From the IMG/VR virus record IMGVR_UViG_3300042554_002914: DNA of 64,000 nucleotides; one strand, given 5' to 3'. Position numbers and translations under genes: made by a program. The notes under the pieces are model-generated. The model made no database searches. It was not told the DNA's origin and was given only the letters and a program-made list of their open reading frames with translations. The stretch comes from a virus (lineage: Duplodnaviria > Heunggongvirae > Uroviricota > Caudoviricetes). This document shows positions 4,782 through 43,578 of the stretch, in pieces. The first letter of the stretch is position 1; each line of letters begins with the position of its first letter.

Positions 4782-5156
4782 CTAATTACCCTTAAGTGTC
4801 CTATAAATTCCCTCAAACCACCCTGCCTTACGGGGATCCCCACACTTCCACAACGGTAAATGAGATAGCAAATATCGTTTTTCCTCTTTAACCAAACAAG
4901 CGATTGCGCTAGGGTCATAGCCCTTATAGTCTGGGTCGTGGAACTTAACTACCGGTATAGAGTGGTACTCTAATGATAAGAGTAAATCTATCAGGTGCCA
5001 TCTCCCCTCAACTGTTAGCCAAACGAAAGAGGGATGCTCGCCCTCAGGAACTCCCCGTAAACGGCAATACTCCAGCTGAGCATGAGCTGACTGGATAGCT
5101 TGTTGATGGGTAGGGAGATCACGCCTAGAAATGGCGTAGAAGTGTTTTGGGCTCAT
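4782..5156 (-). CDS. Peptidyl-tRNA hydrolase 2 (Pth2)-like protein
   Basis: YAISRRDL..QQAIQSAHA, F.DPD..SAIA, LSHLPL pattern. Confidence 0.65.
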   Translation of the reverse strand: MSPKHFYAISRRDLPTHQQAIQSAHAQLEYCRLRGVPEGEHPSFVWLTVEGRWHLIDLLLSLEYHSIPVVKFHDPDYKGYDPSAIACLVKEEKRYLLSHLPLWKCGDPRKAGWFEGIYRTLKGN

Positions 5157-6652: not shown

Positions 6653-7006
6653 TCAGTCCCAGCCCCCATCCAAACGTCTGCTAACCCCACGCGCAGTTTC
6701 AGCAGCGTCTTCAATTTGGTTTCTTAAACTGATTATAATGTTGGCAATGTTCGTGTAGATTATTCCATCGTTATAACTAAGGTCAAAACCGCAATTGTAT
6801 TCATCATTCTCTTCAACTCCTGAACCGTTAAAAATTTCCCTAAGAACCTTGTGGGTATTCCACTTATCCCGGAACTTGTAGTAATCTTCTCCCTTTTGGA
6901 AATCACTCCAAGCTAGACCACTGTAGTCTGGGGGACCGCACTCTGATAGGATTTTCTTAAGTTTTTTCTTACCGGTAGCAGTCAATAATTTAGGGTCGAT
7001 TTCCAT
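6653..7006 (-). CDS. Hypothetical protein
   Basis: 117 aa ORF. Confidence 0.6.
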   Translation of the reverse strand: MEIDPKLLTATGKKKLKKILSECGPPDYSGLAWSDFQKGEDYYKFRDKWNTHKVLREIFNGSGVEENDEYNCGFDLSYNDGIIYTNIANIIISLRNQIEDAAETARGVSRRLDGGWD

Positions 7007-7029
7007 TTTTCTATTAGTGTTTGGGGCAG

Positions 7030-7278
7030 CAAGGGGACCGAAGCCCCCCGCAATGAGTCAGAATGCTATAGCTCAAACGGCTACGGCAGTCCTCTCGAAT
7101 TTGACGATTTTGTTAGCGTCTATGTTGTGCTTATGCAAGCGGCTTTCGGTAATTGGCTTGCTGTCGGTCGATTCCAGAGCGGACCCTCGAAAGGGAAATG
7201 GATCCGGGGCGATTCGAACGCCCGTGTCGCGCAGTAGTGACAACTACCTACACCCAGTTTTGAGCCGTATGGTAGGGC
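7030..7278 (-). ncRNA. ssrA: Circularly permuted (two-piece) tmRNA; tag (A)ANKIVKFERTAVAV*
   Basis: T arm + 3' acceptor CGGATCC-A (to 7199) precedes a 12-nt spacer and 5' acceptor GGGTCCG (7186); G3:U70; GGAATCGAC; UAGAC before resume codon GCT at 7117; stop 7075-7073; outer ends approximate. Confidence 0.92.
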
Positions 7279-7302
7279 TTTAACAATTATTACCCGTTAC
7301 AG

Positions 7303-7536
7303 TTAAGAGTCTATGGTAATCTTATACTGCCTAACTAAGTTAAACAACTCAGTTTGAAGGTCTTCGAAGCCGCCCACAAGTTGATCCTGAGTGACCGCAT
7401 AGCAAGGGCCCACTTTAGAGCCCGCCCAAGGTATGACTTGTTTGTGCTCTAGAATCTTGTTCCTGTACTTAAGAAGTAGGGAGTTAATCCCGGAGGCGAG
7501 CTGAACTTTATCGGATAGATCTACTTGTTTTAACAT
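7303..7536 (-). CDS. Hypothetical protein
   Basis: 77 aa ORF. Confidence 0.55.
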   Translation of the reverse strand: MLKQVDLSDKVQLASGINSLLLKYRNKILEHKQVIPWAGSKVGPCYAVTQDQLVGGFEDLQTELFNLVRQYKITIDS

Positions 7537-10605: not shown

Positions 10606-11730
10606 CTAGCAATGATAGTGATAGAATTTTTCTATGGTATCACCACACAAATAATTAATTAATTCATCATCAATTGTGTTCGGTAAAACGCATTCATTTT
10701 TTATTACGTGGTCGGCTTCGTCAAATAGTTGGTTTACAATGGAAATAAGTTCGCTATAGGTGATCCTACCATACTTAATGTCAAGAAGGAACTCTGCGTC
10801 ACCGACCAATTTCCTATCTACGAATAGCTTACCGGTCCGCATCCCTTCAATAGCCATTTTCATAAGCCTCACGCAATGGCTGGCATTCTTACCATCGTAC
10901 CCGCAAGCCCGTTCAATTTCAGATCGTTTGACATTTCTATTCGTCAACCAATCTTGATAGTTGCCCCATCTTTTCAGGTCTGCCCGGTATTGCTGACTGG
11001 AGTGAAGTAAGGCCATGTATTCATCACTTGCCCTTGTGATTTTCTGTGTCTCATCAAAGCATTGCGTTGGTAGGACACTCTGTTTTAGAATACCTTTCCA
11101 ATCAATTTGGCCATTGAGGAGGTCGTAAAGCTCAGTGGAGGCCTGATAATATTCGATTCTATCTTTAATCAACAGATACAAATACTCAATAAACGACTCA
11201 ATCTGCGACGGTGTTAAGCTCGGTGAAGGTACCCCGTAGTCTCCCCACTCTGGTTTCCTTGTTGGTGGATCCCGAAGCCATTTGCGGTGGGTTTCCATCT
11301 TTTTGATTTGAGACTTTGCATACTGGACAAATGTGCCAGAGATTCTTTTGGAGATTAGTTTCTCCCGGTTGTTAATTAGGGACTGTCCAAGATAATCTAG
11401 GTAGATATAGCTATCGGGGGTTTGCCAAAGCATCTCCAGGATGTTGGGGTTTTGCGATCGTAACAGGCTGAGATATCGCCTGATGCCATAAACTACTGAG
11501 TCGGAATTGTCTAATTCAGGAAATCTTGTCCTAAAAGTTGGTTCTCCGGTATGCTCCCACCCTTTATCCTTTTGTTCAAATGTTTCGAGTGTATTGTAAA
11601 ATCTCCGTGGTGCAACACAGATACCTTTAAAGTCAAGGTCTGACATTTCGGTGTTTAAACCATAGGCGTGACTACCTGATTTACAAAACAGGATCATCCC
11701 GTCTTCGATTTCTTTTCGTGTAATTGTCAT
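10606..11730 (-). CDS. Pol-beta-superfamily nucleotidyltransferase (RlaP/Nuc-transf-like)
   Basis: GSHAYGLNTEMSDLDFKGI, NPNILE, YDGKNASHCVRL. Confidence 0.85.
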   Translation of the reverse strand: MTITRKEIEDGMILFCKSGSHAYGLNTEMSDLDFKGICVAPRRFYNTLETFEQKDKGWEHTGEPTFRTRFPELDNSDSVVYGIRRYLSLLRSQNPNILEMLWQTPDSYIYLDYLGQSLINNREKLISKRISGTFVQYAKSQIKKMETHRKWLRDPPTRKPEWGDYGVPSPSLTPSQIESFIEYLYLLIKDRIEYYQASTELYDLLNGQIDWKGILKQSVLPTQCFDETQKITRASDEYMALLHSSQQYRADLKRWGNYQDWLTNRNVKRSEIERACGYDGKNASHCVRLMKMAIEGMRTGKLFVDRKLVGDAEFLLDIKYGRITYSELISIVNQLFDEADHVIKNECVLPNTIDDELINYLCGDTIEKFYHYHC

Positions 11731-12814: not shown

Positions 12815-13423
12815 TTAGTTAGAACCCAGAACGAACCGAGCGAATCGCTTCACAACAATGTTTTCGCCCACAGTAGCAGCGAAGTTCTTGGTATAAGTAT
12901 CGATAGTCATCGTGCCATCTTTGATATAAGGTTGGTCCATCAGGGACATTTCCTTAAAGCGTTTGGCTACACGACCTTCAACAATTCTGCTACGCATTGC
13001 TTCTGGCTTTTTAGCAAGGTCTTCTTTGCCCATTTCGATTCGTGTCTCGTCTAGCAGGACTGATTCTGGAATTTCTGAAATGGAGACATAACTTACAGAA
13101 GGGCAAGCTGCGATTTGCATTGCCAAAGTGCGAACGAACTCTTGGAATGGCCCAGATTTTGCCACAAAATCAGTTTCGCAGTTGACTTCGATGAGTACGC
13201 CTATGTTGCCACCCGTATGGATATAGCTAGAGATGGTCCCTTCTTTGGCAGCCCTGCCAATTTTACCATCGGCCAAGGCAATACCTTTTTGGCGCAGCCA
13301 AGTGATTGCTCCTGCTTCATCGCCTTTGGAGTTAATAAGTGCATCCTTACAAAGGATCATTCCTGCTCCGGTCTTTTCTCGTAGAGCTTTAATTTGTGGG
13401 ATTGTGGGTGGGAAGTTGGTCAT
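12815..13423 (-). CDS. tsf: Translation elongation factor Ts (short cyanobacterial type)
   Basis: IKALREKTGAGM..CK, EVNCETDFVA, LAMQIAA, LMDQPYIKD, VKRFARF; ATG at 13423 preferred. Confidence 0.95.
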   Translation of the reverse strand: MTNFPPTIPQIKALREKTGAGMILCKDALINSKGDEAGAITWLRQKGIALADGKIGRAAKEGTISSYIHTGGNIGVLIEVNCETDFVAKSGPFQEFVRTLAMQIAACPSVSYVSISEIPESVLLDETRIEMGKEDLAKKPEAMRSRIVEGRVAKRFKEMSLMDQPYIKDGTMTIDTYTKNFAATVGENIVVKRFARFVLGSN

Positions 13424-13474
13424 TTTTTGTTTTAGGTATTTGGTTGGGGGGGGCAATGACTGAGTAGGCAATGG

Positions 13475-23898: not shown

Positions 23899-24675
23899 TC
23901 AACTCCCACTGCCAAACCCTCGACCGCCCCCTCCGAATCCGCTCCGTGCCGATGACCCAACGGATGCTGGCCGAGACGACGTAAACGATGAGCGGCCATA
24001 GCCACCTACAGAGCCCCTAATCGATGCACTACGGGCAGATGGCACATAGTTGCTGCTTAATGCCAAAGTGCGCCCGCTAGATGGGTTGGCGCGAATGTAG
24101 GAGGTTCGCATTCCTTCCGTCAGGGAATTGGATCGAATTCCGGAGAACCCATACGAGTAATAATAAGGAGTCGGATACCAACCGCCAAGAACAACAACTG
24201 AGGTTCGATCATAATCGTCGTCCTGATTATCAAAGACCGATGGCCCCGCAACTACGGCTCGCTCCTTAAGCTCATCAGCAGTAAGGGGCCGCTCGTTGAT
24301 ATAGCCTTCTTCATCCTCGTATTCTGCTGTTTTTTGATCGTAGCCTTGGAGATATACAGGGCGACTATTCGCCATGAACCCCACCATTTTAGGCAACCAA
24401 ACTGTGGCACCGTCTAAAGTTACTTCGGAACATTCCTGATGACCTGCCGTCTTGCAATTAGCAGTGCTGGGGTAGCGAGGTGCCTTGAGCAGGTGGCTAA
24501 ATGCTGCCCGATCATAATGCTGCTTGCAATCTTTGGTTCCAGACTTTTCACATTCTTCTACAGTTGGAAAAATCTTCTGACCTTCCAAGCTGGGTTGGGG
24601 TTTGGAGCAAGCTGTCAATGTGATGGCCGTCATGGATGCAATGAGGACCAAAGAGATGGATTGTGTGTGTTTCAT
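23899..24675 (-). CDS. DUF1190 (YgiB-like) lipoprotein with Gly/Arg/Ser-rich tail
   Basis: Lipobox LTAC; F.TVEEC..C..APRY..C; tail SGFGGGGRGFGSGS; directly upstream of the GspS-like gene. Confidence 0.8.
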   Translation of the reverse strand: MKHTQSISLVLIASMTAITLTACSKPQPSLEGQKIFPTVEECEKSGTKDCKQHYDRAAFSHLLKAPRYPSTANCKTAGHQECSEVTLDGATVWLPKMVGFMANSRPVYLQGYDQKTAEYEDEEGYINERPLTADELKERAVVAGPSVFDNQDDDYDRTSVVVLGGWYPTPYYYSYGFSGIRSNSLTEGMRTSYIRANPSSGRTLALSSNYVPSARSASIRGSVGGYGRSSFTSSRPASVGSSARSGFGGGGRGFGSGS

Positions 24676-37104: not shown

Positions 37105-37168
37105 TTTGGAGCCGTTTTGTCTTGTATAGACCCGGACGGACAGACCCGGTTTGGGGTGCGACCCCGAG

Positions 37169-37241
37169 TGGACAAGATCGGTCTCGAACCGACAACCCCC
37201 TGCTTGCAAAACAGGTGCTCTACCAATTGAGCTACGAGCCC
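37169..37241 (-). tRNA. tRNA-Ala(TGC)
   Basis: Loop TT TGC AA; G3:U70; weak acceptor stem. Confidence 0.8.
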
Positions 37242-42804: not shown

Positions 42805-43578
42805 CTAAGCAACAAAATCCCCTAGCTGAATCCTGCCCTCCGGCACCCATTCTTTGACAATGGCCCTAATTATGGGCTTAGTTGGCCTATACTGGGGGGG
42901 AATATCCGACATGTCCAAACTCTCGGGTCCAACCAAAACCCGTTGGCGTTTAATGTAGGTCCCATGGGTGAATGCCCTAGGGAGTTCTTCCCAAGGTTTC
43001 CCTATTTGTTTCAGCAAGGTTTTCATTTCCTCGCAAGTTACCCCTTGAAGATCCTTATGTGAAAATAAACTCTGAGCATACATTGACACTGAGTTTTTTG
43101 TAGCATCGTTAAGTCTCCACAGGAAATTCTTATAGACGTATTCCAAATTAGGAACGTTCCATACCCTGCAGTCAAATACTGGGTACTGGCCGGACTTCTC
43201 AGGAAGGCAATCAGGTAAGTTCCCTGTGAAAAATGCCCCCGCCATAGATGCCAGAATTGAGGTCAGTTTCTGATATTTGCCCCTAAATAGGAAGTCTCGA
43301 TTGGAGTAATTTCGCTTGTCAAGGTGCCAATATAAGGTGATTTCATCAGATTGGCAATACCCGAGCAAAGCTTCACTTTCGGTAACAAGGTGCCTGGTGG
43401 TAGCAACCATTAGGTTAACGAATCGCTCATCAAACGGCTTTTGGAGGCCATGGGTAAACGAGCTAAAGGCCCTTCCATCGATGCGGCACATTAAAGGGCG
43501 GAAAGGATTTGCGGTCCTGCCTGCCTCTTTTTGCTCTTGTTCTTTTAGGATGTCGCCTAGGGTGTCAGTGTGTGGCAT
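42805..43578 (-). CDS. tRNA(His) guanylyltransferase Thg1-like protein
   Basis: RIDGRAFSSFT..KPFD, YCQSDEITL, K..SILAS, FDCR, WR..DA.KNS. Confidence 0.93.
   Translation of the reverse strand: MPHTDTLGDILKEQEQKEAGRTANPFRPLMCRIDGRAFSSFTHGLQKPFDERFVNLMVATTRHLVTESEALLGYCQSDEITLYWHLDKRNYSNRDFLFRGKYQKLTSILASMAGAFFTGNLPDCLPEKSGQYPVFDCRVWNVPNLEYVYKNFLWRLNDATKNSVSMYAQSLFSHKDLQGVTCEEMKTLLKQIGKPWEELPRAFTHGTYIKRQRVLVGPESLDMSDIPPQYRPTKPIIRAIVKEWVPEGRIQLGDFVA

Follow-up and report, generated by a model that had tools for sequence, protein, structure and literature searches.

The closest described counterparts of the locus analyzed here are the two-piece tmRNAs of the picocyanobacteria Prochlorococcus, Synechococcus and Cyanobium, which are represented by the Rfam family cyano_tmRNA (RF01851). 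In the genes for these RNAs the order of the parts is permuted, no CCA is encoded, a pyrimidine-rich spacer is present, and both G3:U70 and a discriminator A are found; the RNAs also have P2 helices, a small hairpin ahead of the tag, a stop-codon hairpin and a terminal hairpin, and the tag itself begins AN(N/K)IV.F.R. All of these features recur in the phage gene described below.

Phage tmRNAs have been on record since the Bxz1 group of mycobacteriophages (PMC4131195), huge phages have been reported to carry tmRNAs together with SmpB (Al-Shayeb et al. 2020, PMC7162821), and 79 sequences from bacteriophages are listed in the tmRNA database of 2025 (PMC11915505). The Bxz1 group, Bacillus phage G and the huge phages resemble the present case in that rescue RNAs are borne by large phages with many tRNAs and translation factors; their tmRNA, however, is unpermuted, and the SmpB of the huge phages has no counterpart that we could find in the lineage studied here. 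In a survey of 18,146 phage genomes, 402 were found to have tmRNA genes (Buchholz et al. 2022, PMC9004378). The unique forms that ARAGORN classed as two-piece numbered 53, all but three of which (50/53) came from marine or aquatic phages, and Table S1 of that work lists permuted tmRNAs in the cyanophages S-CBWM1, S-CAM3, S-SSM6a and AG-345-P14. An earlier note on this DNA had held that permuted tmRNA is not well described in phages, a view that this catalog, with its several cyanophage entries, contradicts.

Two of the cataloged systems are particularly close. The tmRNA of S-CBWM1 (MG450654, ~23899-24177), designated "Permuted" in the same Table S1, is a phage-encoded RNA of the cyanobacterial type which shares with ours a GAAAGCYGCUUGCAUAAGCAC block and an ANKIV tag start; it differs in scoring 123 bits, in keeping the 3'-domain hairpin, in its tag (ANKIVAFHRQAVSCA), in a mRNA-like half that is only 51% identical, and in being carried by a 139 kb myovirus rather than a jumbo phage. 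In the Methylophilales phage Melnitz and related pelagimyophages (PMC9004378), which are lytic and aquatic, the permuted tmRNA is likewise complete and shows no sign of a role in integration, but it is alphaproteobacterial and coupled to a glutamine riboswitch, whereas no riboswitch was found in our Rfam scan of the analyzed DNA. In the GenBank records of several cultured Synechococcus phages the permuted tmRNAs, which usually lie in or beside a tRNA array, are unannotated or are covered by a "hypothetical protein" CDS. Such loci occur in S-CRM01 (L229:544-853), S-CAM1 (L235:285-599), S-CAM3 (L236:285-599), Sf-FS3 (L237:243-570) and S-CBWM1 (L002:2852-3169, unannotated in its record).

Phage tmRNAs have thus been cataloged, but their function has barely been studied. 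Here, we describe a clade of permuted cyanophage tmRNAs that constitutes a clean natural experiment: a selected tag that differs from the VAA-ended tags of the hosts, a tRNA-like half that is freely swapped, and phage AlaRS-like, CCA-adding and EF-Ts genes without SmpB.

Materials and Methods

The window is a stretch of 64,000 nucleotides of viral DNA (IMG/VR record IMGVR_UViG_3300042554_002914), analyzed over its whole length. Relatives of its tmRNA gene were sought by pattern scans of IMG/VR and of a metagenome collection, with checks by BLAST, Rfam and ARAGORN; on IMG/VR a 16-mer pattern gave mostly chance matches, and a longer pattern returned a clean clade. The host sample comprised 151 Cyanobiaceae genomes, in 129 of which a cyano_tmRNA scored above the cut-off, the main copies at 274-326 bits. 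A consensus fold was computed with RNAalifold from eight diverged phage copies; in this alignment the two P2 helices occupy columns 45-51/229-235 and 59-65/213-219.

Results

Identity and Anatomy of the Gene

The cyano_tmRNA model is covered in full by a match of 76.4 bits on the minus strand of the window, at 7295-7033 (cut-off 70; E=1.3e-18 for 64 kb), and the newer, general model tmRNA_permuted (RF04321) matches the same gene with 56.5 bits (cut-off 47). This resemblance to the permuted tmRNA of the cyanobacterial type is far beyond chance, and the locus is a genuine gene of a known kind; the RF01851 score is nonetheless only narrowly above the gathering threshold, far from the scores of the cellular copies. 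The two computational checks that the earlier note had proposed gave different answers: the Rfam model was positive, and ARAGORN called 19 tRNAs in the window and no tmRNA. In six relatives of the window copy, however, ARAGORN does call a permuted tmRNA, with an unchanged tag frame, and since these and two Rfam models agree, we do not count the miss against the gene.

When the coordinates were re-checked on the minus strand, the arrangement proposed in the earlier note was recovered: the T arm and the acceptor 3' strand come first and are followed, after 12 nt, by the acceptor 5' strand (table 1). The acceptor 5' strand GGGUCCG with its G3:U70 and discriminator A, the motif GGAAUCGAC and the tag ANKIVKFERTAVAV are likewise where they had been placed. 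The G3:U70 pair is formed by G7184 and U7202; G3:U is invariant in all eight phage copies, and acceptor positions 4-7 covary. CCA is not encoded in the gene. The 3' domain is reduced, 35 positions of the model being represented by 5 nt in the Rfam alignment, and the ~30-nt hairpin of the host model is absent.

Both of the flanking ORFs are on the minus strand, like the gene itself. The promoter-like site is a weak match to the consensus, and its TAATAAT box is kept in four relatives (L038, L225, L231 and L234). No terminator-like site was found by the scan 3' of the gene, where no U-tract follows the terminal hairpin. An 88-aa ORF with a GTG start (7017-7283, plus strand), the whole of which runs antisense to this gene, is almost certainly spurious.

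Table 1. Positions in the window of the parts of the tmRNA gene and of further genes for translation or RNA repair
Feature	Position	Strand	Basis and remarks
Promoter-like site TAGACT-16 nt-AATAAT	7286..7313	-	Consensus scan, 9/12 matches; putative function; predicted transcript start near 7279
Whole permuted tmRNA gene	7033..7295	-	RF01851 and RF04321 matches; occupies the gap between ORFs 7303-7536 and 6653-7006
Acceptor-piece 5' hairpin AGCC-CUACCAUAC-GGCU	7263..7279	-	Covaries across relatives
P2 5' strands, acceptor piece: GGUAGUUG (7248-7241), inner CUACUGCG (7237-7230)	7226..7248	-	RNAalifold compensatory changes; Rfam alignment concordant
T arm GGGCG-UUCGAAU-CGCCC	7207..7223	-	5/5 pairs covary in 8 phage copies; T loop canonical
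Acceptor 3' strand CGGAUCC (from 7206) and discriminator A7199	7199..7206	-	Predicted mature 3' end of acceptor piece
Intervening spacer UUUCCCUUUCGA, 12 nt, pyrimidine-rich	7187..7198	-	Predicted to be excised
Acceptor 5' strand GGGUCCG	7180..7186	-	Predicted RNase P-generated 5' end of coding piece
D-loop analogue GGAAUCGAC	7167..7175	-	Aligns to GGUUUCGAC of Rfam consensus
P2 3' strands, coding piece: CGACAGCAAG (7166-7157), CAAUUACC (7155-7148)	7148..7166	-	Covariation
Small hairpin GCUU-GCAU-AAGC at PK1 position, upstream of tag	7129..7140	-	Rfam alignment
Tag frame: resume GCU 7117-7115, 14 codons, last GUU ends 7076, UGA 7075-7073	7073..7117	-	Translation ANKIVKFERTAVAV
Stop-codon hairpin GUAGC-CGUUUGA-GCUAU	7068..7084	-	Last tag codon and stop in loop; covariation
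3'-terminal hairpin with cUUCGg tetraloop	7033..7048	-	Last cyano_tmRNA element; Rfam alignment; compensatory changes in L021
EF-Ts	12815..13471	-	PF00889, 100 bits
Thg1-like tRNA-His guanylyltransferase	42805..43578	-	phrog_4717
RlaP-type nucleotidyltransferase	10606..11730	-	PF10127

Covariation of the Helices

The consensus fold of the eight copies contains 57 pairs, of which 21 show compensatory double changes, and both P2 helices covary. In a recount on the same alignment 95.6% of the cells were paired and compensatory changes occurred in 22 pairs, values that none of 500 shuffles reached for either measure and that compare with a pairing of 37-47% when the partners were slid, with the caveat that the structure put to these controls had been derived from the very alignment they used. 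The 5' hairpin of the acceptor piece illustrates the pattern: its stem is AGCC/GGCU in the window, AGUC/GACU in L027 and L021, and CGUC/GACG in S-CBWM1. In the stop-codon hairpin, columns 301:313 read AU, CG, UA and GC, so that the third base of Val12 (A/C/U/G) changes in concert with the base that follows the stop (U/G/A/C). The four pairs of the small hairpin at the PK1 position are invariant in all eight copies and hence uninformative on pairing.

Two pairings put forward in the earlier note gave way under this comparison. The proposed P2, GACAGC/GTTGTC, competes with the covarying GGUAGUUG/CAAUUACC helix and is rejected in its favor; in L057 the latter is replaced by GGUGAUUG/CAAUCACU, a change that preserves this helix and weakens the one proposed. 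The pairing of GCTCAAA with TTTGAGC between the two pieces is rejected as well, being broken without compensation in G001/L001, L057 and L027, and its strands belong to two covarying local hairpins, the 5' hairpin of the acceptor piece and the stop-codon hairpin.

The Tag and Its Ending

Eight distinct coding sequences for the tag are found in the clade. Their variable sites are distributed 1/2/7 over codon positions 1, 2 and 3 (7/10 are third positions), the other two frames over the tag contain stops, and the ending V-A-V-stop is invariant as protein in spite of four different codons for Val12 and two for Ala13. Because of this third-position bias, the stops in the alternative frames and the synonymous coding of the ending, the pattern of substitution indicates that the tag is translated and under purifying selection. 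The context of the resume codon is conserved in all members of the clade.

All 35 host tags that were read are 16 residues long, end in VAA and fit AN(N/K)IV(R/S)FSR(Q/R)xA(P/L)VAA. The window tag, as the earlier note had recognized, is a variant with a host-like N-terminal half, the start AN(N/K)IV.F.R being common to the two; it is 14 residues long and ends V-A-V, without the canonical Ala-Ala of the hosts, which is a feature of the tag and not of the fold of the RNA. Other cyanophage tags end in SCA (S-CBWM1), TLV (the L034 type), VAAL (S-CRM01), LATA (AG-345-P14 and Sf-FS3) or TVAA (S-CAM1 and S-CAM3). The last two refute the suggestion that AA never ends a cyanophage tmRNA tag and, in retaining VAA, also make it plain that a phage tmRNA does not need a different ending; the tag ends of cyanophages are diversified rather than uniformly non-AA.

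Relation to Host tmRNAs

Compared with the host RNAs, the window copy has a different acceptor strand (GGGUCCG versus GGGGCUG) in addition to its lower score, its shorter tag and its missing 3'-domain hairpin, and it resides in a phage without a recognized SmpB gene. Among 35 sampled Cyanobiaceae tmRNAs the nearest is only ~62% identical to it, over 120 nt. Given this low identity and the lack of the ~30-nt hairpin, the gene was not acquired recently from a host. The earlier note had called the RNA host-derived; this stands in a deep sense, the architecture and the best model being cyanobacterial, but not as a claim of close origin, given the divergence, the difference in score and a tRNA-like domain that was found only on phage or metagenome contigs.

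Second, low-scoring tmRNA copies in some Cyanobiaceae genomes were considered as possible representatives of the phage type and rejected, since they look like degraded duplicates of the host type. These copies, L220 (G020:C8:15487-15781), L218 (G013:C11:308429-308665) and L219 (G043:C1:926930-927148), score 168, 94 and 66 bits; one of them is only 3 kb away from its main copy, and the pattern is that expected at the borders of ssrA-integrated islands.

Exchange of the tRNA-Like Domain

The same RNA was found on ~18 contigs, from 1.3 kb to 279 kb in length, in the IMG/VR and metagenome scans. Within this clade at least five types of tRNA-like domain are joined to one conserved mRNA-like half. 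In L038 and L225, for example, the 45-nt 5' leader is 100% identical to that of the window and the mRNA-like half 86-88% identical, whereas the ~100-nt tRNA-like core has an identity of only 43%. Since so divergent a core sits between flanks of 86-100% identity, the exchange of the tRNA-like domain between phages as a cassette explains the alignment far better than point mutation. The domain type of the window, with its GGGUCCG acceptor, was found solely on contigs from phages and metagenomes, every one of them with a VAV tag, and is the one type in the clade that ARAGORN does not recognize.

In the type represented by L038, L049 and L225 the T loop is non-canonical (GGCAGUA versus UUCGAAU) and the D-loop analogue lacks GG (CUAGUUUCGAC), so that both partners of the T-loop/D-loop contact are altered together; these copies score 70-73 bits with tmRNA_permuted, above the window copy.

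The Carrier Phage and Its Translation Genes

The carrier is a jumbo cyanophage of ~280 kb that infects picocyanobacteria. The nearest relative found (G001), whose tmRNA copy is 98% identical to that of the window, is a viral genome of 279,339 bp with direct terminal repeats that is rated 100% complete. Phage genes in the window include those for a tail fibre, a virion structural protein, an endolysin, a DNA ligase and a UvrD-type helicase, the last being closest, among named phages, to its counterparts in the 244 kb Synechococcus phages B3 and B23 (48% amino-acid identity). No permuted tmRNA was found in B23, and such a gene is therefore not a hallmark of the jumbo Synechococcus phages. A megablast search with 3 kb around the gene gave no match among named phages.

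There are ~20 tRNA genes in the window, along with those for EF-Ts, a Thg1-like enzyme and an RlaP-type nucleotidyltransferase (table 1). A candidate Pth2-like hydrolase at 4782-5156 was set aside, having no Pfam support at E<=0.01. The phage tRNA-Ala(UGC), at 37168-37241 on the minus strand, has the acceptor GGGCUCG/CUUGUCC, in which G3:U70 is kept and positions 5:68 (U-U) and 6:67 (C-U) are mismatched; such mismatches are unusual in a sequence that the Rfam tRNA model scores at 56.9 bits.

The complete relative G001 has matches to the AlaRS catalytic core and to a CCA-adding-type nucleotidyltransferase. The AlaRS match was found neither in G160 (98% complete) nor in S-CBWM1, both of which have other types of tRNA-like domain. 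A search for SmpB (PF01668) was negative for G001, G160, S-CBWM1 and three partial contigs, and the phage RNA must therefore use the SmpB of the host.

Discussion

With its anatomy, its covariation, the selection on its tag and its phage context now described, and with no SmpB gene found alongside it, the locus is very probably a working phage gene for a circularly permuted, two-piece tmRNA of the picocyanobacterial type. Four features distinguish it as a variant: the selected 14-residue VAV tag, a reduced 3' domain, a tRNA-like domain that is exchangeable and goes unseen by ARAGORN, and the dependence on host SmpB beside phage AlaRS-like, CCA-adding and EF-Ts genes.

From the sequence, the transcription, processing, charging and tagging by such an RNA can be envisaged as follows. 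The putative sigma-70-like promoter near 7313-7286 would direct the synthesis of a precursor of ~245 nt, from ~7279 to 7033, in which the minihelix of acceptor stem and T arm would be recognized by tRNA-processing enzymes. RNase P would cleave 5' of G7186, the 12-nt spacer would be trimmed to the discriminator A7199, and CCA would be added by the host enzyme or by a CCA-adding enzyme of the phage. The resulting acceptor piece (~81 nt) and coding piece (~154 nt) would be held together by the 7-bp acceptor stem and P2. Once charged by AlaRS via G3:U70 and A73, the RNA would enter stalled ribosomes with host SmpB and EF-Tu; translation would then resume on the GCU at 7117, append the tag and stop at the UGA in the hairpin loop. 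The likely benefit to the phage is an extra capacity for ribosome rescue at a time when host mRNAs are destroyed or host nucleases stall translation, which fits the presence of the ~20 phage tRNAs, EF-Ts and the Thg1-like gene. Upkeep of hijacked translation and protein tagging, the roles that had been proposed for the ssrA of the Melnitz type (PMC9004378), are the same as those proposed here.

What happens to the tagged proteins may depend on the ending of the tag. According to PMC10832536, which cites Andersen 1998, tags ending in AAV and ASV destabilize GFP in E. coli less than do LAA and LVA, with half-lives of 60 and 110 min versus 40 min, and in Synechocystis the AAV and ASV tags also destabilize reporters less than the LAA and LVA tags (PMC2860132). 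By extrapolation from these E. coli-type tags, which are other tags studied in other hosts, VAV would most plausibly be a weaker degron for ClpXP, so that tagged products would be cleared more slowly; in view of the published data this is the most economical reading of the ending. The earlier note had suggested that a terminal AV might redirect proteolysis, and the AAV and ASV data would favor a weakened rather than a redirected degron. If VAV-tagged proteins are indeed degraded more slowly, then phages would use trans-translation mainly for the recycling of ribosomes and not for the destruction of proteins.

A more ambitious interpretation would make the VAV clade a modular subfamily, in which a conserved mRNA-like half accepts swappable tRNA-like domains, the altered end of the tag changes the fate of the rescued proteins by slowing their degradation by ClpXP or letting them escape it, and the domain is perhaps matched to the phage's own AlaRS and CCA enzyme. 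We advance this tentatively and judge it rather unlikely in its entirety; were it true, the phage would have a partly autonomous pathway of ribosome rescue, with only SmpB borrowed from the host.

The RNA could also act against the host's own trans-translation, by soaking up SmpB or outcompeting the host tmRNA and thereby suppressing VAA tagging, its own tagging being secondary or unproductive. A decoy of this sort would be in keeping with the absence of a phage SmpB, which means that the host pool is drawn on, with the exchangeability of the tRNA-like domain and with the non-canonical T loop in L038 and L049. There is also a parallel in mycobacteriophage DS6A, whose tmRNA consists of a tRNA-like domain only and is reported to be similar to a strong tmRNA inhibitor, perhaps titrating SmpB (PMC4131195; PMC11915505). 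A pure decoy, however, would need neither a tag frame under purifying selection at the amino-acid level nor a stop-codon hairpin that covaries, and the context of the resume codon is conserved across the clade as well. We therefore regard this explanation as improbable.

It is very doubtful that the unusual tRNA-like domain, with its GGGUCCG acceptor, has become adapted to a miniature AlaRS of the phage and receives its alanine without the host enzyme. The distribution of the AlaRS core match would suit such phage-autonomous charging, since the match occurs in G001, which has the same domain as the window, and is missing from G160 and S-CBWM1, which do not. This correlation, however, sets one genome against two and is anecdotal, the other contigs with the domain type being fragments, and the shared identity set (G1-C, G2-C, G3:U and A73) is universal and makes a special enzyme unnecessary.

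It is scarcely credible that the gene is a decaying or neutral relic of host ssrA, acquired when excision was imprecise or retained to serve for attachment. In favor of this reading, integration into tmRNA genes is common and pieces of such genes may be present in phages (PMC9004378), degraded second copies exist in some Cyanobiaceae genomes, and the Rfam score of the window copy is low. The gene, however, is whole and not just a 3' fragment, is diverged from the sampled host copies, is conserved with compensatory and synonymous changes on contigs with different flanks, and belongs to a large phage, with direct terminal repeats present in the relative G001.

Because the domain type of the window escapes ARAGORN, phage surveys based on that program (Al-Shayeb et al. 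2020; Buchholz et al. 2022) undercount tmRNAs.

The spacer between the acceptor strands is a further site of variation in the clade. In L057 and in L226-L228 its position is taken by an element of ~83-87 nt, compared with 12 nt in the window (for the long spacers see L057:7325-7415, minus strand, and L226:2270-2365). In L057 this element folds as a D-armless tRNA-like structure, with a short acceptor-like stem, a long arm and a T-arm-like hairpin (GUGGG-UUAGAAU-CCCAC) followed by CACCA, and the long arm covaries between the two versions of the element. This long tRNA-like spacer, which has been lost from the window, may provide processing sites for RNase P or RNase Z.
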